Positions 1 through 9,848 of a stretch of 64,000 nt of DNA are shown one piece after another (position 1 is the stretch's first letter; every line of letters starts with the position of its first letter). Position numbers and translations under genes: made by a program. The stretch lies in assembly GCA_030524455.1 (NCBI GenBank), contig JAUNGT010000011.1, positions 5,052 to 69,051 on the forward strand. The letters are read 5' to 3'. Source of the DNA: Eubacteriales bacterium. GTDB taxonomy: Bacteria; Bacillota; Clostridia; Lachnospirales; Lachnospiraceae. A model generated the notes under the pieces. It searched no databases. It was not told the origin of the DNA and was given only the letters and a program-made list of their open reading frames with translations.

Positions 1-371
1 TCCTCCACCGTAAGCTGCCGCTGAGAGGAATCCGTCCCTCCCGACTGTCCCGGTGCAGAAGAGCTGCCCATATTCATCTGGGGAAAAGCGTCCCCTGACT
101 GCCAGGAAAAGGAGGAATCCCCGGTAAACTCCGACAAATCCAGCTCAAACACCTGGCTCTTTGTTCCCACCGAGATGCTGCCCTCCTCCGTCACAACGGA
201 CGTCTGCCCCTGCGCCGTCGCTACCTCCGGCGCAGCCTCCCTGCTATCCTCCCGTTCCTGTCCTCTTTTGGTCAGATACCACGCCGTCACCCCGGCGGCC
301 AGCGCCAGGACAAGCACGACCGCAAGGAAAACCGCAGGGATTTTTTTCTGTTTTTTCTGATCCGCCTTCAT
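1..371 (-). CDS. HlyD/efflux RND-type periplasmic adaptor (MFP) paralog 3, 5' part only (runs off window)
   Basis: Not in ORF track. ATG at 371 after GAGGAGGAG gives MKADQKKQKKIPAVFLAVVLVLALAAGVTAWYL (N-terminal anchor)...VVTEEGSISVG...LTVEE, matching VTESGSIAL and LQIQE/LYVEE of the two upstream paralogs; open to window edge. Confidence 0.8.
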   Translation of the reverse strand, partial: MKADQKKQKKIPAVFLAVVLVLALAAGVTAWYLTKRGQEREDSREAAPEVATAQGQTSVVTEEGSISVGTKSQVFELDLSEFTGDSSFSWQSGDAFPQMNMGSSSAPGQSGGTDSSQRQLTVE

Positions 372-387
372 CTGCCTTCTCTCCTCC

Positions 388-1998
388 TCACCCGGCGCTG
401 CTTCTGATATAAATTACATCGCCCTCTGAAAGTCCCTCCGTGATTTCCACGGACGTACTGTTTTCCATTCCGGTCTGAACCTCCTGCAGCTGTTTTTCCT
501 CCCCGTCTCCCACATAGACATAGGTTTTCCCGTTCTGCTCCACCACGGCCTTGCGGGACACATACAGAACATCCGGCACTTCCTCCTCCACAAAGGTAAT
601 CTCCGCCGTCATGCCCCCGTAAAGCTTTTGCGTATCGCCCTCCACGCGCACCGCCACCGGATAGCTGACGGTTTTTGCGTAGGAGGAGGTTTTTGTCGTG
701 GTGACGGAAAGGACCGTCCCGCTGTATTCCTCCTCCAGATAAGCCTCAAAGGACACCCGGACGCTGTCTCCGATGGAAATGTCTGCGATATCCTCCTCGG
801 ACACGTCCACCGAAACCGTGTAATCCGCCGTTTTGACATAGGTAAGCATGGTTCCCGTCTGCGTCAGCCGGTCCCCCGCCTCATAAACCACCTCCGTCAC
901 CATGCCCTCTCCGTCCGCATAGACCACGCAGTCTTCCCTCACAAAATCATTCAGCTCCTCCAGCGTTTCCCGCGCCTCGTCCACATCCGCCTGAGCCTCG
1001 TCCACGCTGCTCTGCAGCGATTCCTTCGTGTAGGCGTAAATATCCGCCGCCAGCTCCCCGCCGGAAATGCTCAGCTCATAGGTGTTTTGGGCGTCGGACT
1101 GCTTCGCCTCCAGGATTCCCTGTTTTTCCAGAATCGTCTCCTGATTGGCAAGGATTGTCTCCTGATTGTCCGCCACCGTTTCCTCCCAGCCCTCCTGCTG
1201 GGAAAGCAAATTCTCATACTGTGTCTTTGCGCTGGTATAATCCGCATAATTGGCCGAATAGGCGGCCGGACTGGACAGATCCGTCTCCTCATAGGTCTCC
1301 TTCGCCTTCTCATAGGCGGTCAGAGCCTCCTCCAGGGAATCCTTAAAGTCCTCATCCGTCAGCTTTTCCAGGCACCGGTCGATTTCCTCCTGCAGGACGG
1401 CGGTCTGGGCCAGCAGTCCGTTGATTTCCTCCGTCAGCTGCGTCTGCGTGGCGTCAAGCTGCTCTGCCGCCGTGTTGGCCGTCAGCATACTGGTATCGTA
1501 GGTGCTCCTGGCGGACAGCACCGAGGTATTATATTCCGACTGGGCCTGCGCCAGCGCAATCTCCTTCTCCGTCAGCGCAGCCTCCAGCTTGCGCACCACT
1601 GCCTGATAGCTCTCCTGCGTGATGGAAAACAGGGGATCTCCCTCCGCGATCCGCTGTCCGCTGACCGCGTAAACCTCCTGGATCTGCAGATAGCCCGGTT
1701 CCTCGTCCTCGCTGTCCTCATCCTCGCTGTCCTCGTCGTCCTCGTCCTCCTCCGTGTTCACCTCCACATCGAAGGTGATGTAGGATTCCTCCAGCGCGAT
1801 GCTTCCGCTCTCCGTCACGCCCCGCACCAGATCGCCCCGCTGCACCGTTTCCTCCTTATAGACCGTTTCGTTTTCCTCCGCTCCCTGCGCCAGCAGCGTA
1901 TAGGCGGCGGCTCCCGCCGTCAAAAGCACTGCCGCCAGAAAAAGGCACAGACCGAGCAGTCTCTTCGGATTTCGGGTGATCCATTTTCTGATTTTCAT
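388..1998 (-). CDS. HlyD/efflux RND-type periplasmic adaptor (MFP) paralog 2
   Basis: N-terminal TM, VQRGDLVRGVTESGSI, barrel-sandwich halves (EVYAVSGQRIAEGDPLF; ADGEGMVTEVVYEAGD), long coiled coil, beta-barrel (VSVDVSEEDIADISIGD), C-terminal VQTGMENSTSVEITEGLSEGD. Confidence 0.88.
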   Translation of the reverse strand: MKIRKWITRNPKRLLGLCLFLAAVLLTAGAAAYTLLAQGAEENETVYKEETVQRGDLVRGVTESGSIALEESYITFDVEVNTEEDEDDEDSEDEDSEDEEPGYLQIQEVYAVSGQRIAEGDPLFSITQESYQAVVRKLEAALTEKEIALAQAQSEYNTSVLSARSTYDTSMLTANTAAEQLDATQTQLTEEINGLLAQTAVLQEEIDRCLEKLTDEDFKDSLEEALTAYEKAKETYEETDLSSPAAYSANYADYTSAKTQYENLLSQQEGWEETVADNQETILANQETILEKQGILEAKQSDAQNTYELSISGGELAADIYAYTKESLQSSVDEAQADVDEARETLEELNDFVREDCVVYADGEGMVTEVVYEAGDRLTQTGTMLTYVKTADYTVSVDVSEEDIADISIGDSVRVSFEAYLEEEYSGTVLSVTTTKTSSYAKTVSYPVAVRVEGDTQKLYGGMTAEITFVEEEVPDVLYVSRKAVVEQNGKTYVYVGDGEEKQLQEVQTGMENSTSVEITEGLSEGDVIYIRSSAG

Positions 1999-3947
1999 TC
2001 CGCATCTCCTTCCCCGGTTCCCGGCGCTCCTGCTCCGAAGGCTCCGCCCCCCTCAGGCATATTCATGCCCTCCGGCATGCCCTCGCCCTCCGGCATGCCC
2101 TGGAAATCTTCAGGGGCTTCCATCCCCTCCGGCAGCTCCTGCACTTCATTGCCGGATACCTGTCCGCCCGTGTTTGCGGCAGTCAAAGCTTCCTTTTCCT
2201 CCTCCGTCAGTCCAAAATAGACGTAGGCGGTCAGATTTGCCTCCAATTCGGAAACGTCTCCCTCCAGTTCCACATTGACTGTGTAAGTCACCGATGCGCT
2301 GCCCGCCGTCTCCGAAACCGGATTGAAGCTGGTTACCTTTCCCTCGAATACGCCGTAGCCGCTGATCACAGCCACCGCCTCATCCCCGATTTCGATCTTT
2401 GCGATATCCGACTGATCCACATCCGCCGACACCGATACGGTGTCCGGACTGGTATAAGCCAGGACCATACTGTCCTCCGTCAGCCAGCTTCCCGCGCGCA
2501 CGCTCGTCATCATCACCGTTCCGGCTTCCGAGGTATAGAAAACCCCGTCCCCGATCACTTCCCTGAAATCCTCCAGATTCTGCGACGCCGTTTCCTCCTC
2601 GTCCTTCAGCGTCTGATATTCCTCCTCCAGCTGCTTTACCGTGGTTTCATATACCGTCTGGGCGCTCTCGTTTTCCGCCGCCGCAATCTCATAGGTTTCC
2701 CTGGCGGCAATGACTGCCTCCTCATAGGCAATCTTTTGTTCGGCCAGCTGGGCCTGCAGCACCTTCAGCTCGCTTTTGGCCTTTTCAATCCCTGCTGCGG
2801 CAGCGTCTCTTGCCTCCTCGTAGCTTTCCAGCGCCTCCTCGTAGGCAGCCTCCTGTTCCTCGGCTTCCTCCTCCATCGCCAGATAAATATTGTAGCGGAT
2901 CTCGTCGGAGCCTACCTGGACGGTCGGGATTCTCCCCTCCAGATCCATTCCCTCGGACATTTCCATGCCCTCCGGCATTTCCGGCATACCGCCCGCCCCG
3001 GGATCCGGGGGCGTCGTACCGCCTCCGGAGCCGTCGCCTTCTTCTCCGGAGCCGTCGCCTTCTCCGGAGTCGCCTCCCGTATCTTCTTCCTCCGGGCTTT
3101 CCTCCGTTGTTTTCACGGTTTCCGTACTGTAATAGGCCGCGGGAATCTCCTGCACATCACTCTCCTGCGCGGCAGCATTCCCGGCTGCCTGTGCCGAGGA
3201 TATGCCGCCGGAGGTCCCCGCCGCGGCATTGTTCGTCACATAGCCAATTCCGTTTTTGCCGCCTGAGCCGCCAAACACCGATTCCAGGCTTTCCACGTCC
3301 CATTCGTTGTACAGCTCCATCAAAAAGGCCGCGTAGTCCTTCCAGGTTGCCTCCAGCTCGCCCACCTCGTAATAGGTATAGTAATAGTCCTCCTCGATGG
3401 AGGCCGTATATTCATCCACCTTTTCCTGCGCCTCGTCCACCTTCTCCTGGACGCTGTCCAGCTGCTCCTGGGCCTGTGCCACCGCATCGTCATATACCGC
3501 CTGGGCATATTCCGCTTCCGCGGCGGACAGCTTTTTCTGGATTTCCGCCTCCGCCAGGCCGGTCTGATAGTCGATCTCCCCCTGCCTGCGGTTGAGCTCT
3601 GCCTCCGTGGCTGCCCGCTCCAGCTCCTTCTCCGCGTCCTCCAGGCTGTCCTGCGAAACCTTAAAAACCGGCGTGTCCGCCTCCACCTGATCGCCCATAT
3701 TCAGGTAGGTTTCCTCCACATACAGCCCTTCCTCCAAAAATCCCAGCTCCCAGCTCTCCTCCCGCATTCCCACTCCCGTCAGTCCGGAGGCGGACACGGC
3801 GTTCTCCGAAAGGCTCATCCCTTCGGGAAGCGTCGGCATCTGCTCCTGACCGGCAGGCTGCGTATACAAATAAAAACAGGTCGCCGCGGCTCCTCCCGCC
3901 ACGACCATCACCGAAAGGCCGATCACTGCCAGTTTTTTCCTTTTCAC
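1995..3947 (-). CDS. HlyD/efflux RND-type periplasmic adaptor (MFP) paralog 1 with Gly/Met/Pro/Glu-rich inserts
   Basis: Start refined to GTG 3947 (or adjacent TTG 3950) after GGGAGG. N-terminal TM, ETYLNMGDQVEADTPVF, coiled coil, VSADVDQSDIAKIEIGD; 4-bp overlap with next gene. Confidence 0.85.
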   Translation of the reverse strand: MKRKKLAVIGLSVMVVAGGAAATCFYLYTQPAGQEQMPTLPEGMSLSENAVSASGLTGVGMREESWELGFLEEGLYVEETYLNMGDQVEADTPVFKVSQDSLEDAEKELERAATEAELNRRQGEIDYQTGLAEAEIQKKLSAAEAEYAQAVYDDAVAQAQEQLDSVQEKVDEAQEKVDEYTASIEEDYYYTYYEVGELEATWKDYAAFLMELYNEWDVESLESVFGGSGGKNGIGYVTNNAAAGTSGGISSAQAAGNAAAQESDVQEIPAAYYSTETVKTTEESPEEEDTGGDSGEGDGSGEEGDGSGGGTTPPDPGAGGMPEMPEGMEMSEGMDLEGRIPTVQVGSDEIRYNIYLAMEEEAEEQEAAYEEALESYEEARDAAAAGIEKAKSELKVLQAQLAEQKIAYEEAVIAARETYEIAAAENESAQTVYETTVKQLEEEYQTLKDEEETASQNLEDFREVIGDGVFYTSEAGTVMMTSVRAGSWLTEDSMVLAYTSPDTVSVSADVDQSDIAKIEIGDEAVAVISGYGVFEGKVTSFNPVSETAGSASVTYTVNVELEGDVSELEANLTAYVYFGLTEEEKEALTAANTGGQVSGNEVQELPEGMEAPEDFQGMPEGEGMPEGMNMPEGGGAFGAGAPGTGEGDAE

Positions 3948-3992
3948 CAAAAACCTCCCGTCCGCGCGGATCAACGCGCAGCATATTTCATG

Positions 3993-4191
3993 CAAACAGT
4001 TCAGCCAGCCGGGAGCGAACGGACAAAATCGTGCTTGCACGAATTTTGGCCGGTTGCTCCTGGCTGAGGGAGCGCCCGATGATGAGCAAAGTTAGCCGCG
4101 CAGCGGCGGAAAGCGCGTTATGCGCGAAAGACGAACAAGTTCGAAAGACGAACAAGTTCGTCTGCCCGAATGGCGCGGGCTGAACGGTTAC
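3993..4191. mobile_element. MITE-like non-autonomous element, copy 1
   Basis: Ends caaacagttcagcc / ggctgaacggttac (imperfect 14-bp inverted repeat). Reverse complement aligns with 61705-61868 (8 mismatches over the shared 126-nt part). Long internal palindrome. Confidence 0.8.
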
Positions 4192-4202
4192 AACTGTCCT
4201 CC

Positions 4203-4234
4203 ATTGTATCGGCCTTTTCTTAAAACAACCTTGA
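4203..4234 (-). promoter_or_regulatory. Putative response-regulator-activated promoter of the MFP operon
   Basis: Minus strand TCAAG-N6-TTAAG-N10-TACAAT: 11-bp-period direct repeat replacing the -35, typical of OmpR-family targets. Confidence 0.6.
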
Positions 4235-4336
4235 AAAAAAGTGAGAATTGTGTGAAATGAGTTTCTTCCTGTACGCATTTGTGGTATCTTATGAAAAACA
4301 GAGGCGTGAGAACGTGTTTTTGGAAAGGATATTCCC

Positions 4337-5005
4337 ATGCGAATTTTGATTGTGGAGGATGAGGCCGCGCTGGCGGAAGCCTTGTCCGAGATTCTGCGGC
4401 AGAACGGCTATCTCTCCGATACCGCCGCAAACGGCACGGACGGGCTGGAGTTTGCCCGTATCGGCATTTATGACCTGATCCTTCTGGATATCATGCTGCC
4501 CGGCATGGACGGTCTTTCCGTCCTGAAGGCCCTGCGCCGCGAAAAAATCCATACGCCCGTCATCCTGCTCACCGCCCGCTCGGAGGTCTCGGACATCATC
4601 GCCGGCCTGGACGCGGGCAGCGACGATTATCTTCCCAAGCCCTTTTCCACCGCGGAGCTGCTGGCGCGCATCCGCGCCATTTCCCGGCGCGGCGGGCGGT
4701 ATCTGGAGGATAGCTGCTGCTTTGAGGACCTGTCCCTGCAAAAGGGCTCCATGGAGCTTTCCTGCGGCAGCCGCACGATCCGTCTGGGCTTAAAGGAGTT
4801 TCAGCTGATGGAGCTTTTTCTGCGCAATCCCCACCAGGTGCTGCCCAAGGATCTGATTATCGGAAAAATCTGGGGCCTGGACACTGCCGCCGACTACAAC
4901 AACGTGGAGGTCTATGTCTCCTTCCTGCGCCAGAAGCTGCAGGCGCTGGGCTCCCGGGCTTCCATCCGCACCAACCGCGGCGTAGGCTACAGCCTGGAGG
5001 CATGA
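4337..5005 (+). CDS. OmpR-family response regulator
   Basis: MRILIVEDE, LLDIMLPGMDG, DDYLPKPF, winged-helix end TNRGVGYSL. Confidence 0.95.
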   Translation: MRILIVEDEAALAEALSEILRQNGYLSDTAANGTDGLEFARIGIYDLILLDIMLPGMDGLSVLKALRREKIHTPVILLTARSEVSDIIAGLDAGSDDYLPKPFSTAELLARIRAISRRGGRYLEDSCCFEDLSLQKGSMELSCGSRTIRLGLKEFQLMELFLRNPHQVLPKDLIIGKIWGLDTAADYNNVEVYVSFLRQKLQALGSRASIRTNRGVGYSLEA

Positions 5006-5006
5006 C

Positions 5007-6260
5007 ATGATCCGAAAGCTTCGCTTCAAATTTATTGCGGTCACGATGACCTCCATCGGCTGCCTGCTGCTGCTGATTCTGCTTGTCATCAACATCTTTA
5101 TGAATGTGTCCAGCCGCAGCCAGGGCTACCGGATGCTGGAAGGCTTTTCCCGCGATTTCGGACAGACAGACGACGCAGAGCCGGAATTTTCCGCACATCC
5201 GCAGCCGCCCCGGGATCCCGCCTATCAGGACGCCTTCCGGATATTCAGCGTCTCCTGCGACGCCGACGGCAATCCCCTGCAGGTCAGCTATCTGCCGGAC
5301 TCGGAGCTTGAGCGGGAGGATATTCTGGCCATCTTCCGGAAAGCCGTAAAGGATTGGCCCAAAAGCCGTCCGGAAAGAGGCATTGTGCAGAGCCGCTATC
5401 TGTATCTTGTCAGCAAACAGGATGGCTTCTGGCAGATTTATTTTCTGGACTACTCGGTGGAGCGCTCCATGGTATACCGGCTTTTTTTCCTCTGCCTGCT
5501 GGCCGGAAGCTTCGGCATCGCAGTTCTTTTTGCCGCGGTCTTTCTCCTGTCCGGCTGGATGGTGCGCCCGGTGGAGGCGGCCTTTGAAAAGCAAAAGCAG
5601 TTCATTGCGGACGCCTCCCATGAGCTCAAAACGCCGCTGACCATCCTCTCCGCAAACGCCGAGGTGCTCTCTGCCTCTCTCGGTCCCAACCGCTGGCTGA
5701 CACACATCCTGGAACAGACGCAGCGGATGAACACGCTGATCCGGGAGCTTCTGGACCTGGCCCGGTTGGACAGCGGCACACAGAAGGCGGATTTTGTCCC
5801 CTTCGACTTAAGCCGCTGCTGCTTAAACGCCGCCCTGTCCTTCGAGAGCGTGGCCTTCGAGTCCTGCATCAGCCTCCGGACAGAGATTACAGAGGGAATC
5901 TCCCTCACCGGCAGCGAAAATATGCTGCGCCAGCTGGTCACCATCCTGCTGGACAATGCCTTCAAATACGCGGACGAGGGCGGCATGGTAAAGCTGTCCC
6001 TGCGCCAGAAGGGCGAAAAACGGCTTCTCTCCGTGTACAATACCGGCAAGGGGATCCCGCAGGAGGAACAGGCGCACATTTTCGAGCGTTTTTACAGAAG
6101 CGACAGCTCCCGCAGCCGGGAATCCGGCGGCTATGGCCTGGGACTCGCCATCGCCTCCTCCATCACCGCAGCGCACGGCGGGCAGATCAGCGTCTCAAGC
6201 GACGGCAAAAGCTTTACGAAAATTACGGTGACGCTGCCTCCCAATGCCCCCAGCAAATAA
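5007..6260 (+). CDS. Sensor histidine kinase
   Basis: Two TMs, H-box FIADASHELKTPL, N-box LLDNAFKY, G1 NTGKGI, G2 GYGLGLAIA. Confidence 0.95.
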   Translation: MIRKLRFKFIAVTMTSIGCLLLLILLVINIFMNVSSRSQGYRMLEGFSRDFGQTDDAEPEFSAHPQPPRDPAYQDAFRIFSVSCDADGNPLQVSYLPDSELEREDILAIFRKAVKDWPKSRPERGIVQSRYLYLVSKQDGFWQIYFLDYSVERSMVYRLFFLCLLAGSFGIAVLFAAVFLLSGWMVRPVEAAFEKQKQFIADASHELKTPLTILSANAEVLSASLGPNRWLTHILEQTQRMNTLIRELLDLARLDSGTQKADFVPFDLSRCCLNAALSFESVAFESCISLRTEITEGISLTGSENMLRQLVTILLDNAFKYADEGGMVKLSLRQKGEKRLLSVYNTGKGIPQEEQAHIFERFYRSDSSRSRESGGYGLGLAIASSITAAHGGQISVSSDGKSFTKITVTLPPNAPSK

Positions 6261-6267
6261 CGGCCGT

Positions 6268-7113
6268 TCACCTGCCGGCGTCTGAAATGGCCTTTGACGG
6301 GCAGATTTTTTTGCAGCGCCCGCAGCGAATACATTCGCCGGAGTTGACCTCCTTTACCGGATCGATCCCCATACCGCAAACCTGCCTGCAGGCCCCGCAG
6401 CCCGTACACTTTTGGGGATCTGCCCGGTACCGGTAAACCGAGATGCGGTTAAAAAAGGAATAGATGGCGCCCAGCGGACAAATATATTTGCAGAACGGGC
6501 GGTATATTATGACGGACGCCAAAACCGTAACCGCCAACAGGACGGTTTTCCAGGCATACAGCCAGCCCAGTGCGCTGCGCAGCCCTGCATTCAGCAAAAC
6601 ATTCGGAATACCGCCCTCCAGGGTACCGACCGGGCAGAGCAGCTTGCAGAAATATGGTGCGCCCTGCCCCAAAACGTCCGTCAAAAGCATCGGGAGCAAA
6701 ATCACAAACACAAGAAGAATGATATATTTCAATCTGCGCAGCAGCCGGTCGCCGCGAAAGGACGCAATTTTTACAGGAAACGGAAGCTTATTTAACAGCT
6801 CCTGAAGCAGTCCGAACGGACACAGCCAGCCGCAGGCCAATCGCCCGGTCAGTGCGCCGACAAAAAAGAGAAAACCGGCGACGTAGAGAGGGAGCTTAAA
6901 GCTCCGGCTGCCCAAAACCGCCTGCAGCGCCCCGATCGGGCAGGACATCAGCGCGCCGGGGCAGGAATAGCAGTTCATCCCCGGCACACACAGATTTTTC
7001 AGTCTGCCCTGATAGATTTTCCCCTGAAGGAAGCCCACCATATAGCTGTTGCTCAATAACGCCCAAATTGCCTGTACGGCATGTCTTTTTTTATCCGGAT
7101 TTCTTTTACCCAA
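6268..7113 (-). CDS. Membrane 4Fe-4S binding protein (NapH/YccM-like polyferredoxin)
   Basis: Start refined to TTG 7113, overlapping the upstream small gene. Motifs NCYSCP...CP, CGWLCP, CKLLCP, CKYICP and two CxxCxxCxxxC ferredoxin motifs; several TMs. Confidence 0.88.
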   Translation of the reverse strand: MGKRNPDKKRHAVQAIWALLSNSYMVGFLQGKIYQGRLKNLCVPGMNCYSCPGALMSCPIGALQAVLGSRSFKLPLYVAGFLFFVGALTGRLACGWLCPFGLLQELLNKLPFPVKIASFRGDRLLRRLKYIILLVFVILLPMLLTDVLGQGAPYFCKLLCPVGTLEGGIPNVLLNAGLRSALGWLYAWKTVLLAVTVLASVIIYRPFCKYICPLGAIYSFFNRISVYRYRADPQKCTGCGACRQVCGMGIDPVKEVNSGECIRCGRCKKICPSKAISDAGR

Positions 7114-7255
7114 TTCCGATACACTCCAAACATATGCGTGTTGCCTTTGCCAGCACCACCGCCATTTCGCCGCGGGCAATGCCGCAGGCCATAAGCACCG
7201 CGCCCACCAGGGCCAGGGCGGCGCCGGCAAAATATCGTCTGAACCGATTGTGCAT
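7106..7255 (-). CDS. 49-aa membrane protein with C-terminal CxxC (CD1871A-like family)
   Basis: Not in ORF track. GGAGG RBS then MHNRFRRYFAGAALALVGAVLMACGIARGEMAVVLAKATRICLECIGIG*; packed between the tlpA-like gene and the 4Fe-4S gene. Confidence 0.88.
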   Translation of the reverse strand: MHNRFRRYFAGAALALVGAVLMACGIARGEMAVVLAKATRICLECIGIG

Positions 7256-7258
7256 TTC

Positions 7259-7831
7259 TTAATCCTCCAGCTTCTCTAACTGCTCCCGCGCCAGATCGGC
7301 CCATTCCCCGGCGGTATACGCGCCGGAAAACGCATCCCCCACAATCGTTCCGGTTTCATCCACAAAAAAGCTTGTGGGAAACGCCGTAACCGAATTCAGC
7401 TTTCCGCCCAGCAGGGTTTCGTCCGGGACCAGCAGGGGAAACTGAACTTCCGTGCGCTCTGCCAGCGTCTTTGCGCTGTCCAGGGCGTCCGCATCGACGG
7501 AGTCCTCCCCGCGGGTATCCGTCACAAACGCCACCACTCCAACCCCTTCCTCCTCAAGCTCCCGGCGCAGCTGCTCCAGGGCGGGAAATTCCTCCACGCA
7601 GGGAGTACACCAGGTCGCCATGACATTCACCAGCGTCAGCCGGCGCCCGGCAAAAATACTCTGGTCAACATCGTTGCCCGAGATGTCCTGTGTCGTAAAA
7701 TCCCCCAGCTTCGTTCCTTCGGTAAATTCTCCGGCATCGTCCGGCTGATCTTTGGCACCGGCACAGGCAGCCAGGGAAAACGCAAGCGCGATGGACAGGA
7801 AAAGTGCAGCAAATCTTTTTAATTTTTTCAT
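7259..7831 (-). CDS. TlpA-family thiol-disulfide oxidoreductase lipoprotein
   Basis: Start refined to ATG 7831 (GAGGAGG RBS); lipobox LAAC; LVNVMATWCTPCVEEFP; FPTSFFVD. Confidence 0.92.
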   Translation of the reverse strand: MKKLKRFAALFLSIALAFSLAACAGAKDQPDDAGEFTEGTKLGDFTTQDISGNDVDQSIFAGRRLTLVNVMATWCTPCVEEFPALEQLRRELEEEGVGVVAFVTDTRGEDSVDADALDSAKTLAERTEVQFPLLVPDETLLGGKLNSVTAFPTSFFVDETGTIVGDAFSGAYTAGEWADLAREQLEKLED

Positions 7832-7882
7832 GGAAAGCCTCCTCGTTCTCATTTGCAGGGATGTGTCATCCCCGATAAACAG

Positions 7883-7915
7883 GATGATAGCATAAGGCGT
7901 ATAAAATCTCTGTTA
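7883..7915 (-). promoter_or_regulatory. Putative response-regulator-dependent promoter of the tlpA module
   Basis: Minus strand TTAAC-N6-TTTAT-N11-TATCAT with TG extension; same architecture as 4203-4234 but more degenerate. Confidence 0.4.
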
Positions 7916-7993
7916 AGCTGTCATGCTCTTTTTCTGGAAGGGGATAATAAAGTGTGCTATGATGAAACAAAAAACAATTCGACGGGGCAAGGT

Positions 7994-8674
7994 ATGAGAT
8001 TATTGATCATAGAGGATGAATACGAGCTGAGACAAATGCTGGAAAAGGGACTTCGCATGGCCGGCTATGAAACGGACTCCTGCGGAAACGGCGCGGAGGG
8101 TCTGGAGCTGGCGCTTTGCGAAGCTTACGATCTGATTCTTCTGGATCTGAATCTGCCGGGTCTGGACGGCATGGAGCTTTTGCGCGCGCTGCGCCGGGAA
8201 AACGAGGAGGTCCGCGTGCTCATCCTTTCCGCCCGGGATTCCCTGTCCGATAAAATCAGCGGACTGGACAGCGGCGCCAACGATTTCCTGACCAAGCCGT
8301 TTCATTTTGAGGAGCTGGAAGCCCGCATCCGAAGCCTTACCCGGCGGCGCTTTCTTCAGCAAAACGTCAACCTGATCTACGGGGAGCTGCATTTTGACAC
8401 ACTCACCCGCATAGCCAGCGTCAACGGTTCGCCGCTGCCGCTGACCAGGAAGGAGACGGGAATCCTGGAATATCTGCTGCTCAACCGTCACCGGATCATC
8501 AGTCAGGAGGAATTGATGGAGCACATCTGGGACGGAAGCGTCAATGAATTCAGCAATTCCACGCGGGTACACATTTCCTCCCTGCGCAAAAAGCTCCGGG
8601 CAGCGCTGGGATATGACCCTGTGGTCAACCGGATCGGCCAGGGATATCATTTGAAGGAGGATTCCAATGCGTAA
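7994..8674 (+). CDS. OmpR-family response regulator
   Basis: Start refined to ATG 7994: MRLLIIEDE, LLDLNLPGLDG, DFLTKPF, RIGQGY. Confidence 0.94.
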   Translation: MRLLIIEDEYELRQMLEKGLRMAGYETDSCGNGAEGLELALCEAYDLILLDLNLPGLDGMELLRALRRENEEVRVLILSARDSLSDKISGLDSGANDFLTKPFHFEELEARIRSLTRRRFLQQNVNLIYGELHFDTLTRIASVNGSPLPLTRKETGILEYLLLNRHRIISQEELMEHIWDGSVNEFSNSTRVHISSLRKKLRAALGYDPVVNRIGQGYHLKEDSNA

Positions 8675-9848
8675 GCTGTCTCTGCGGTGGCGCCTGACGC
8701 TCGCCATGACGCTGCTCTCCGCCTGTGCCTGCCTCACGATGGCGGTTGTCTCCAATCACTATGCACAGGTCCAGATGACGGATCTGGCAGACTTCTCCAT
8801 TGAGGCTGCCGATATCATGCAAAACGGAGAGCTTGAAATCGAGATCGATCCCGGGCTTGAGGATGCGCTGAATTCCCGCGTCCATGCTCAGCTGCGGAGC
8901 CTGAACCGCTGGATCTATCTAAGCTCCCTCCTTGTCATCTGCGCCACGGCAGCTGGCACCTATGTACTGGCCGGACGAATCCTGTCACCTCTGCGCCGTT
9001 TTATCCTCCAAATGGACCAAGTGCAGGCGCAGAACCTGTCGGAGCCGCTGCAAATCCCCGTAAGCCAGGACGAGATCGCACAGCTGACGCATACCTTCAA
9101 CCGGATGCAGCAGCGGTTGAAGGCCTCCTTTGATTCCCAAAAACAATTTGCCTCCAATGCCGCTCATGAGCTGCGGACACCGCTGGCTGTCCTGCAGACC
9201 GGCCTGGAGCTTCTGTTAAAAGAGCCTAACGCGCCGCGGGAAGAGCTGCTGCGCAAAATCACGGACGCCCACGCCCAGACGGAGCGGCTTTCTCATCTGG
9301 TGAGCGAGCTGCTGGAGATGACCCGCCTGGATACCATCGAGCGAAAGGAGCTTATCCCGCTGCACGCGATGCTGGAGGAGCTTTGCTGCGATCTGTACTG
9401 TACCGCCGAAGAGCATCAGGTTTCCCTCCGGCTGACGGGCGGCGACGCGGTTGTCTCTGCCAATGACACCCTGCTGTACCGGGCTTTCTCCAATCTCATT
9501 GAAAATGCGATAAAATACAACCGGCCGGGAGGAAGCGTTACGGTTGACATTGCGCCTGCGGAACAATCCGTCTCCGTCACCGTCACGGACACCGGCGTGG
9601 GGATCCCTCCGGAATCCGCTGTTCTGGTCTTTGAGCCGTTTTACCGCGTCGATCCCTCGCACAGCCGTCCCGGCTCCGGGCTCGGGCTGGCTCTGACGAA
9701 AAAAATACTAACGCTCCACAATGGGACCGTAGAAATTTCCAAAAGCACGCCCGCCGGAACCACGGTGACGGTCACGCTCCGTGCTCCAGCATCGTTTCCA
9801 CAAAAATCCCGTATCCTCTTGTCGAATCGTGGACAAACACATGGGTGA
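8667..9848 (+). CDS. Sensor histidine kinase (HAMP-HisKA-HATPase)
   Basis: Two TMs, HAMP, FASNAAHELRTPL, LIENAIKY, DTGVGI, GSGLGLAL. 3' end overlaps spoIVB on the opposite strand. Confidence 0.93.
   Translation: MRKLSLRWRLTLAMTLLSACACLTMAVVSNHYAQVQMTDLADFSIEAADIMQNGELEIEIDPGLEDALNSRVHAQLRSLNRWIYLSSLLVICATAAGTYVLAGRILSPLRRFILQMDQVQAQNLSEPLQIPVSQDEIAQLTHTFNRMQQRLKASFDSQKQFASNAAHELRTPLAVLQTGLELLLKEPNAPREELLRKITDAHAQTERLSHLVSELLEMTRLDTIERKELIPLHAMLEELCCDLYCTAEEHQVSLRLTGGDAVVSANDTLLYRAFSNLIENAIKYNRPGGSVTVDIAPAEQSVSVTVTDTGVGIPPESAVLVFEPFYRVDPSHSRPGSGLGLALTKKILTLHNGTVEISKSTPAGTTVTVTLRAPASFPQKSRILLSNRGQTHG

Follow-up and report, generated by a model that had tools for sequence, protein, structure and literature searches.

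Why would an exporter of the MacB type, a kind of pump known to have one adaptor, be encoded together with three distinct ones? The question arises at the left end of the window, the 64,000-nucleotide stretch of a contig from a gut Lachnospiraceae bacterium analyzed here, where a first-pass annotation had reported three co-oriented, tightly packed HlyD-type adaptor genes (MFP1 to MFP3). MFP1 (1995..3947, minus strand) was taken from the ORF list and an HlyD-type profile match; its ORF spans 1995-4040 (minus strand), and the GTG at 3947, located 5 nt after GGGAGG, is the likeliest start, giving 650 aa plus a stop, or 651 codons. MFP2 (388..1998, minus strand; 536 aa) was identified from the ORF list, a profile match, and an AF2 model. 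The first 123 codons of MFP3 lie in the window (1..371, minus strand), in an ORF at 3-371 that is open at the window edge, and the full gene of 487 aa extends to the left of that edge (contig C28:3959-5422, identically numbered in L003). MFP1 and MFP2 overlap by 4 bp, and MFP2 and MFP3 are separated by 16 bp, in agreement with the spacing originally described.

The first-pass annotation had also advised a search to the left of the window for a partner, and one was found there. Directly downstream of MFP3, outside the window, is the gene for a MacB-type permease of 452 aa (L003 2593-3951; MacB_PCD+FtsX), and downstream of it that for an ABC ATPase of 228 aa (L003 1903-2589; ABC_tran), giving the five-gene operon order MFP1-MFP2-MFP3-MacB permease-ABC ATPase with the OmpR/histidine kinase pair divergent. 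The permease matched PF12704 (E value of 2.5e-25) and PF02687 (E value of 5.6e-20), corresponding to the MacB extracellular core domain and a C-terminal FtsX-type four-helix module. Its best NCBIfam match was MacB (PRK10535, 152 bits), below the equivalog cutoff, since the ATPase is encoded by a gene of its own. The ATPase matched PF00005 (E value of 1.2e-34), with the MacB ATPase half, DarD, and LolD as top matches, and its Walker A, signature, Walker B, and H-loop motifs (GPSGSGKT, LSGGQKQR, LLLADEPT, and ITHD) were intact in the sequence. A permease, an ATPase with catalytically intact motifs, and one full-domain adaptor (MFP2), as expected of a MacB-type ABC pump, are all present, and the operon is probably translationally coupled and codes for a MacAB-like envelope pump (type VII ABC) in a monoderm member of the Lachnospiraceae.

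All three adaptors matched HlyD_D23/HlyD_3 or RND_mfp models, MFP3 when read full length from the contig (Biotin_lipoyl_2, HlyD_D23, and HlyD_3). Pairwise identities among them were 26-29%, with E values of 1e-12 to 5e-26, and they are therefore real, old paralogues. Their description as very acidic was borne out, with a pI of about 4.05, a D+E content of 21%, a net charge of -69 to -108, and the 2nd, 3rd, and 5th ranks in net acidity among the 1,935 long ORFs of the genome. Alignment likewise confirmed the reported paralogue-specific low-complexity inserts at one site: immediately ahead of the L-x-(I/V)-(Q/E)-E strand, MFP1 has 2 residues, MFP2 carries NTEEDEDDEDSEDEDSEDEEPGY, and in MFP3 there are 38 aa rich in Ser and Gly. 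Throughout the family, this shared site holds a poly-Asp/Glu loop in MFP2 and a Gly/Ser/Met loop in MFP3, and the MacB extracellular domain has a Gly/Met-rich loop; Met accounts for 8-9% of the Gly/Met-rich loops of MacB and MFP3 across the family.

MFP2 is the only complete MacA-like adaptor at the locus, comprising a TM anchor, lipoyl domain, hairpin, beta-barrel, and membrane-proximal (MP) domain in addition to the poly-Asp/Glu loop, which spans about residues 80-103. It reaches the TIGR01730 cutoff, its best PDB sequence matches are MacA, and its AF2 model (pLDDT of 86.6; hairpin helices 128-238 and 244-353) had MacA in MacAB-TolC as the top fold matches. MFP3 has a TM anchor, lipoyl domain, and beta-barrel, together with the Gly/Ser/Met-rich loop and a hairpin of about 227 aa. 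MFP1 has a TM anchor, a long hairpin, a beta-barrel, and a disordered Met/Pro/Glu/Gly tail, without an MP domain; its AF2 model placed helices at 99-225 and 347-465 and disorder at 228-346 and 597-650, the former being an insert of about 119 aa at the hairpin tip, where a conserved aromatic-rich element is also found. The tail and the large tip insert are not supported as core features of MFP1, being lineage-variable and ranging from 2 to 230 aa. Matches to the MP-domain HMM were obtained for 62 of 63 MFP2 proteins, 59 of 63 MFP3 proteins, and none of 63 MFP1 proteins, the domain being missing from MFP3 of this clade only. In almost all of 62 loci the hairpin spans were 127+119 aa in MFP1, 224-226 aa in MFP2, and 227-229 aa in MFP3, and these lengths held despite identities of 30-45%. 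In the AF2 models a kink followed 87 helical residues in MFP1 and MFP2 alike. Helices of about 110 residues would build a chimney of roughly 16 nm, which, together with the lipoyl and barrel rings, would reach far into, or across, the cell wall.

To find out whether the three paralogues are kept together in relatives, species-representative genomes were searched for relatives of the permease, giving 164 relatives, and the gene order was read in the best 80 loci. Among them, 62 of the 68 untruncated Lachnospiraceae loci held the order MFP1-MFP2-MFP3-MacB, with a 4-bp overlap as the commonest junction between genes. The adaptors formed three separate orthologue clades in the tree, with SH-aLRT values of 100 for MFP1 and for MFP2, MFP3 lying on one side of a branch with weak support (55). 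The paralogues are thus strictly co-conserved in order. The same seven- or five-gene module was also present in genomes of the same genus and of other genera, and only about 5% of the sampled Lachnospiraceae genera carried the module; Kineothrix alysoides is a cultured carrier. None of the best 80 loci showed two adaptors fused into one protein ("Rosetta stone"), no co-conserved neighbor besides the sensor pair was seen in the 62 loci, and no biosynthetic, immunity, copper, or silver genes were found near the module. A literature search found no published triple-adaptor exporter, in keeping with the suggestion that the layout had not been described.

The divergent pair consists of an OmpR/PhoB-type response regulator (4337..5005, plus strand; 222 aa), in which the Response_reg and Trans_reg_C domains were found, and a sensor histidine kinase (5007..6260, plus strand; 417 aa) with HisKA and HATPase_c domains, as first reported. 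The regulator did not reach equivalog level, its best match being the heavy-metal response regulator subfamily, below the cutoff of that subfamily. The kinase has two hydrophobic segments around a loop of about 130 aa which matches no family. Upstream of MFP1, a direct-repeat box, TTTCAAG-GTTG-TTTTAAG (4219..4236, minus strand), was recognized by its conservation among the loci with a divergent two-component system (TCS). It has an 11-bp period, is oriented towards MFP1, and was kept in 11 of the 13 divergent-TCS loci that were aligned; it lies upstream of MFP1 in every divergent-TCS locus, matching at 14-15 of 15 positions. TTTCAAG-N4-TTTTAAG has exactly one match in the 3.27-Mb genome, and relatives carry a second copy, in the same orientation, before the regulator gene. 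The adjacent OmpR-type regulator is the candidate to bind this box, and the domains of the pair together with direct repeats of a 10-11-bp period at the target promoter, where binding is predicted, are typical of the OmpR/PhoB type. A candidate -10 hexamer of the MFP operon promoter, TACAAT (4203..4208, minus strand), was read from the sequence 10 nt downstream of the box. No complete sigma-70 match came out of a consensus scan, which would be expected were the box to stand in for the -35 element. The proposal of a dedicated two-component control is supported by the conserved box, single in the genome, but only about one locus in three has an adjacent pair. Because the pair is missing from about two thirds, and a second group of loci has a different, co-directional sensor pair with a different box, two-component regulation is not a fixed part of the module.

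We compared the locus with characterized systems. MacAB-TolC of Escherichia coli (PDB 5NIK and 9QGY) similarly combines a permease of the MacB type, with its extracellular core domain and FtsX module, with an adaptor that has a TM anchor, lipoyl, beta-barrel, and MP domains, and a hairpin, MacA being the best sequence and fold match of MFP2. Its MacB dimer pairs with a MacA hexamer (PMC5985334), and the same ratio of two permeases to six adaptors is expected here. The differences are three adaptors instead of one, an ATPase encoded by a separate gene, extreme acidity and low-complexity loops in the adaptors, hairpin helices of about 110 residues (roughly 16 nm) instead of a 7-nm MacA stem (PMC5985334), and the lack of a detectable TolC partner. 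A PF02321 (TolC family) search of the genome gave only two marginal half-domain matches, of 29.7 and 22.3 bits, one inside another HlyD-like gene and the other in an unlinked 687-aa protein beside a contractile-injection-like locus; the 687-aa protein was absent from all nine module carriers tested (19 genomes searched). Since a TolC-family outer membrane factor was not found, a tripartite pump in the MacAB-TolC sense was rejected.

Spr0693-0694-0695 of Streptococcus pneumoniae (PDB 5XU0/5XU1) is also a monoderm MacAB-like pump with a separate ATPase. Its Spr0693 adaptor hexamer, with a resolved barrel of 56 Å and a total height of 154 Å, was proposed to be a nanotube from the membrane to the wall zone, and the pump confers resistance to LL-37, an antimicrobial peptide (PMC5768738). 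In contrast to our locus it has a single adaptor with a short barrel and without paralogue-specific loops, and an adjacent sensor pair is unmentioned in PMC5768738. YknWXYZ of Bacillus subtilis and B. amyloliquefaciens, another adaptor-dependent MacB-type monoderm system, protects against the membrane-active peptide SDP, and YknX has a hairpin and MP domain (PMC4338810, PMC4446572), but its only adaptor is encoded alongside the Yip1-like membrane protein YknW. Our operon contains no further ORF of at least 100 aa, and no co-conserved neighbor besides the sensor pair was found in the 62 loci; a YknWXYZ-type four-component system was therefore rejected, as a YknW-like gene is not in the operon. 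A BceAB-BceRS-type module was rejected as well, as the permease is a 452-aa single MacB_PCD+FtsX unit rather than a ten-helix BceB with its large extracellular domain, and the loop of about 130 aa between the two hydrophobic segments of the kinase is at odds with a BceRS-type intramembrane-sensing kinase, which has no sensor loop.

Heteromeric adaptors have precedents in TriAB and the fused DSY0927 (PMC4338810, PMC4446572). TriABC-OpmH of Pseudomonas aeruginosa (PDB 6VEJ, also a sequence match of the MFP2 profile) is the one well-studied pump in which more than one adaptor kind is needed, and our locus likewise has different adaptor genes, three of them, co-conserved with a single transporter in one operon; TriA and TriB are 36% identical, both required, and thought to hold non-equivalent positions (PMC4338810). 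It is, however, a diderm system with an outer membrane channel, and its two adaptors serve an RND trimer (two positions per protomer), compared with three and an ABC dimer here. The TriABC type in full was rejected, as the transporter is a MacB-type ABC permease, not RND, and a TolC partner was not found. DSY0927 of Desulfitobacterium hafniense, known here from its literature description, is a fused double adaptor of an ABC-type transporter and is taken there as evidence that Firmicutes ABC-pump adaptors can act as pairs of different modules (PMC4338810, PMC4446572). DSY0927 differs in joining its two modules in a single polypeptide, and one of them, by that description, lacks a coiled coil.

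Taken as a whole, the locus seems reasonably likely to encode a sensor-linked, inducible MacAB-like monoderm pump with a (MFP1·MFP2·MFP3)x2 adaptor ring. Homology to MacA and Spr0693 would place an adaptor hexamer on a permease dimer, and symmetry, co-conservation, and matched lengths point to a mixed 2:2:2 ring. The kinase would detect an envelope-active compound and the regulator would turn on the operon by binding the box, which would substitute for a -35 element. The three adaptors would then be made in equal amounts and stand side by side in one hexamer, in which the two-fold MacB dimer within a six-membered ring would create three non-equivalent adaptor positions, one per paralogue. The MP domain of MFP2 may dock on the MacB extracellular domain, MFP1 may supply barrel and decorated tip, and ATP-driven MacB "bellows" would drive substrates from the outer membrane face through the chimney. 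The likeliest substrates would be membrane-active toxic molecules such as antimicrobial peptides, the weakest point of the proposal; the large substrate envisaged in the first-pass annotation is not supported, as nothing in the data points to one. More tentatively, and with appreciable doubt, the adaptors may be non-redundant, with MFP2 as a dedicated docking and activating subunit, MFP3 as a second contact subunit with its Gly/Met-rich loop, and MFP1, without a docking domain, as a barrel and tip subunit. This would be the first natural case in which every one of the three symmetry-non-equivalent adaptor positions on a MacB dimer has a dedicated protein. A strongly anionic chimney of fixed length, roughly 16 nm, would span the whole monoderm wall, and disordered loops of MacB, MFP3, and MFP2, of the Gly/Met/Phe and poly-acidic kinds, would serve inside the entry chamber as a flexible selectivity or one-way filter.

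A heteromeric assembly had been suggested from the start, and co-conservation and matched hairpins make it the best reading of the data. The paralogues might instead be alternative adaptors, forming separate homo-hexamers which compete for one MacB dimer and serve three substrate ranges or conditions of use. MacA and Spr0693 as a rule form homo-hexamers, and 26-29% identity with different loops at one site could mean different specificities. However, MFP1 (0/63) and the local MFP3 are without the MP domain, and such rings alone would miss the usual docking surface. Separate rings also need no matched, invariant hairpin lengths, and 62 of 68 loci keep all three genes in a fixed order with 4-bp overlaps, whereas alternative components are usually gained and lost individually. 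We consider this explanation unlikely. The tiered conduit that had also been put forward, with adaptor rings stacked end to end across a thick wall, could draw on three long coiled-coil proteins totaling about 50 nm and on an MFP1 without an MP domain, but it is highly improbable: an N-terminal transmembrane helix beside the barrel/lipoyl domains tethers all three at membrane level, equal-length hairpins with a kink at the same position fit a side-by-side barrel, and we know of no tip-to-base interface for the adaptor fold. Given the N-terminal anchors and matched hairpin lengths, the adaptors should therefore sit side by side at one level.

Two further explanations concern function. The MacB fold includes non-transporting members (PMC5985334), and adaptor function in monoderms is an acknowledged gap (PMC4338810), so that the complex could be a mechanotransducer, FtsEX- or LolCDE-like, whose ATP-driven movements would work on the coiled-coil scaffold and thereby on a wall enzyme, surface-protein release, or kinase signaling. 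This seems quite unlikely, as the permease is nearest to MacB itself (152 bits to PRK10535) and not to FtsX or LolCE, the adaptors have all the domains by which MacA forms a tube, and no hydrolase or lipoprotein gene is co-conserved in the 62 loci. We regard as very unlikely a pump that clears the wall zone of soft metal ions (Cu+/Ag+) or other cations, with the Met-rich and poly-acidic loops as relays. Metal-pump adaptors do bind their own substrate (PMC4338810), the Gly/Met-rich loops of the MacB extracellular domain and MFP3 reach 8-9% Met, MFP1 of this clade has MPEGM-type repeats, and the best regulator and kinase matches include the heavy-metal CztR/SilR/CopR and CztS/SilS/CopS subfamilies. 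Those scores, however, were far under the subfamily cutoffs and similar to those of other OmpR-type families, His/Cys metal motifs are absent, the loops are mostly Gly/Ser/Phe, the MPEGM tail is lineage-specific, and copper or silver genes were not found nearby.

A copy of an abundant, MITE-like dispersed repeat (3993..4191, strand not assigned), recognized by sequence matches on most contigs, is inserted downstream of the predicted promoter and ahead of the ribosome-binding site of MFP1, and thus lies in the 5' leader of the operon. It has imperfect terminal inverted repeats (arms at 3995-4009 and 4175-4189) and an internal 17-bp tandem duplication (4125-4158). The orthologous intergenic regions are mostly 26-209 bp long.

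The first-pass annotation had described three adaptor genes in a row, joined by a 4-bp overlap and a 16-bp gap, and the ORF coordinates confirmed this layout. All three are on the minus strand: MFP1 (window 1995-4040), MFP2 (388-1998) and MFP3 (3-371), the last being cut by the window edge and 487 aa in its complete form. The most likely start of MFP1 is the GTG at 3947, five bases past GGGAGG, giving a protein of 650 aa. The same annotation had suggested looking left of the window for an ABC partner, and the 5 kb in that direction were read from the source contig, of which the window covers positions 5052-69051 (assembly of 3.27 Mb in 88 contigs). A permease of 452 aa with MacB_PCD and FtsX domains was found 3' of MFP3, followed by an ABC ATPase of 228 aa; with the adaptors, these complete a five-gene operon. 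The locus ends at a convergent, unrelated PF09818 gene. This "ABC_ATPase" gene encodes 627 aa with ABC_N and MRB1590_C domains too, and since its 3' end overlaps that of the operon's ATPase gene by 14 bp (positions 1903-1916 of the home locus, L003), there is no space for a terminator between them. Divergent from the adaptors, domain matches identified an OmpR-type regulator (window 4337-5005) and a HisKA/HATPase_c kinase (5007-6260).

Within the genus, the full module of kinase, regulator, three adaptors, permease and ATPase was present in some genomes and absent from most, and it was also present in another genus of the same family. Relatives were sought with the permease alignment in species-representative genomes. 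The scan gave 164 relatives, the best 80 of which were almost all labelled Lachnospiraceae and included Eisenbergiella, Kineothrix, Acetatifactor, Roseburia, Butyrivibrio and Parablautia, as well as strains A4 and COE1. Among these 80, the order MFP1-MFP2-MFP3-MacB was observed in 62 of the 68 loci unbroken by a contig end, and at each of the three boundaries the most frequent junction was a 4-bp overlap. A tree of 100 adaptors contained one group per paralogue (SH-aLRT of 100 for MFP1, 100 for MFP2 and 55 for MFP3), indicating that the triplication is old. Exceptions to the three-adaptor arrangement were L063 (Lachnotalea sp. AF33-28), which has two adaptors, and L057, L075, L010 and L026; in two loci from MAGs only one adaptor fragment remains, and two loci, that of Parablautia intestinalis among them, have one adaptor broken into two ORFs (frameshift or assembly error). 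Of the 201 Lachnospiraceae genera sampled, about 10 had the permease orthologue, and no paired adaptor matches less than 3 kb apart were detected in 149 other Clostridia genomes, with at most nine candidates scored per genome. The module is accessory in the Lachnospiraceae of gut and rumen, and so may bear on the tolerance of these commensals to antimicrobials from the host or competitors. Full-text literature searches and reviews yielded no published account of a MacB pump with three adaptors, the only multi-adaptor cases found there being TriABC, the fused DSY0927 and the MFP remnant VarB in the Vibrio cholerae var operon. The three-adaptor MacB pump is judged a genuine, widespread form of a known pump type, one not described so far.

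The three adaptors are matched by HlyD/RND_mfp models and share 26 to 29% pairwise identity. Each has a pI of about 4.05 and 21% Asp+Glu, and by net acidity they take places 2, 3 and 5 among the genome's 1,935 long ORFs; two further HlyD-like proteins encoded there are less extreme. AlphaFold2 monomer models of MFP1 and MFP2 were built from 63-sequence alignments. The MFP2 model (mean pLDDT 86.6) combines a TM helix, strands of the barrel and lipoyl domains, a hairpin (helices 128-238 and 244-353) and, at the C-terminus, a membrane-proximal domain; the nearest match of both the MFP2 profile and this model was MacA, including MacA within MacAB-TolC. The MFP1 model (mean pLDDT 76.0; helices 99-225 and 347-465) has about 119 disordered residues at the hairpin tip and a tail that is likewise disordered, and it lacks the membrane-proximal domain. 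A kink follows 87 helical residues in both models. At 1.5 Å per residue, helices of about 110 residues would give a stem roughly 16 nm long, an estimate that compares with 7 nm for MacA (PMC5985334) and with the 5.6 nm resolved for the Spr0693 barrel (PMC5768738).

Across the 62 loci, at 30 to 45% identity, the hairpin spans were almost invariant: 127+119 aa in MFP1, 224 to 226 aa in MFP2 and 227 to 229 aa in MFP3. When covariation of hairpin length was used as a test of co-assembly, the MFP2-MFP3 pair (rho 0.62) was the sole informative correlation because the lengths hardly vary. The paralogues differ consistently in other respects. Directly before the first lipoyl strand, MFP2 carries a poly-Asp/Glu loop of 23 aa (11 to 31 aa and 64% Asp+Glu family-wide) and MFP3 a Ser/Gly-rich loop of 38 aa (25 to 77 aa and Gly/Ser/Met-rich family-wide), while MFP1 has two residues there, as it always does in the family. 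The extracellular domain of MacB also contains a loop, of 40 to 96 aa, composed of 37% Gly, then Ser, Met, Phe and Pro. The membrane-proximal domain HMM matched none of 63 MFP1, 62 of 63 MFP2 and 59 of 63 MFP3 sequences. The four MFP3 proteins without this domain are those of the present genome and its closest relatives, and MFP3 from another genus (locus L007 of genome G022, region 6105-9567) retains it, so its loss is recent and confined to the clade of the window. The MFP2 of L007 has an additional Asn/Gly/Met/Pro-rich tail. Two features of MFP1 were discarded as parts of the core design: the large tip insert, which ranges from 2 to 230 aa despite the near-constant hairpin, and the MPEGM tail, the composition of which shifts between lineages.

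The adaptors had been proposed to form a heteromeric or tiered conduit for a large substrate. Stacked adaptor rings, and hence the tiered form, were rejected on account of the N-terminal membrane anchors, which place all three adaptors at the same starting level, together with their matched hairpins; the large substrate likewise found no support. The heteromeric form is favored by co-conservation, the shared anchoring level, the matched hairpins with their common kink, the paralogue-specific domain sets and loops, and symmetry. A MacB dimer sits within a six-membered adaptor ring (PMC5985334), and a ring around such a dimer is two-fold symmetric and therefore offers three non-equivalent adaptor positions, which three equimolar paralogues would match exactly. 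We therefore infer, on grounds of symmetry and conservation, that the three adaptors may share one heteromeric ring with one paralogue per non-equivalent position. A precedent is TriAB, where two adaptors serve two positions on an RND trimer (PMC4338810, PMC4446572). Such a ring would bear on how a six-fold adaptor assembly serves the two-fold MacB dimer, evolution having split the three positions into three genes with differing domain sets and loops. With one gene per position, each could be separately deleted, tagged or mutated, and the constant hairpin length provides a measurable prediction for a wall-spanning duct. The role of adaptors in bacteria without an outer membrane has been called "a significant gap in knowledge" (PMC4338810), and the idea is testable at the bench since cultured strains carry the module (Kineothrix alysoides KNHs209, Parablautia intestinalis D8-82 and Lachnospiraceae bacteria A4 and COE1).

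From its homology, the pump should work like the monoderm MacAB-like pumps YknXYZ and Spr0693-0695, which protect against membrane-active peptides (PMC4338810, PMC5768738, PMC5985334). A role in defence fits both its scattered distribution and its inducible control. Export of a metal, which the Met-rich loops and weak matches of the regulator to heavy-metal types would favor, has low odds: regulator and kinase reached no curated equivalog for their subtype, the heavy-metal subfamily match being below its cut-off. Beyond the sensor pair, no conserved neighbor that would name a substrate was found in the 62 loci.

A sensor pair adjoins about 22 to 24 of the 62 loci, with about 14 divergent and 9 co-directional pairs. 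In the divergent-pair loci, MFP1 is preceded by a direct repeat with an 11-bp period, TTTCAAG-N4-TTTTAAG. The regulator gene has an upstream copy of its own in the same relative orientation, with a good -10 about 10 nt beyond it. In the window, the MFP1-side copy (TTTCAAGGTTGTTTTAAG, 4236-4219, reading towards MFP1) is the single occurrence in the genome and a candidate regulator target; it is followed by TACAAT at 4208-4203, and the regulator-side copy is degenerate. A scan of this intergenic region for the sigma-70 consensus gave no full match. The distribution of the box supports, short of proof, control of the adaptor operon by the neighboring sensor pair. The co-directional-pair loci have a different direct repeat, TTTTAAG-N4-TTTTA(A/G)G (TTTTAAGTACATTTTA(A/G)G), located 100 to 350 bp upstream of MFP1 (L017, L035, L038, L039, L052, L060, L070, L072 and L088), and their regulator is only about 48% identical to that of the window. 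The same pump module seems to be wired to two different sensor pairs.

Between the predicted promoter and the MFP1 start, and therefore within the operon leader, a 199-bp dispersed-repeat element occupies window 3993-4191; its terminal inverted repeats are imperfect, and it contains a tandem duplication of 17 bp. By blastn, complete or partial copies (mostly 130 to 200 bp, 73 to 94% identical) occur on most contigs, so the element belongs to a very abundant dispersed family and not to a two-copy one. Most orthologous intergenic regions measure only 26 to 209 bp.

No true TolC was found in the genome, in which OEP matches were marginal only. One of these (24 to 30 bits) was to a secreted 687-aa protein with a TolC-like N-terminus on another contig (C29:22232-24295; L089 5233-7296). 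It was rejected as a TolC partner, being unlinked and absent from all nine module carriers tested; these were among 19 related genomes searched, none of which yielded the protein. Its gene stands in a row with those for a MORN-repeat protein, a very acidic 1,047-aa protein, a Pvc16_N protein and a phage-tail-sheath protein, an arrangement that resembles a contractile-injection system, here in a monoderm.
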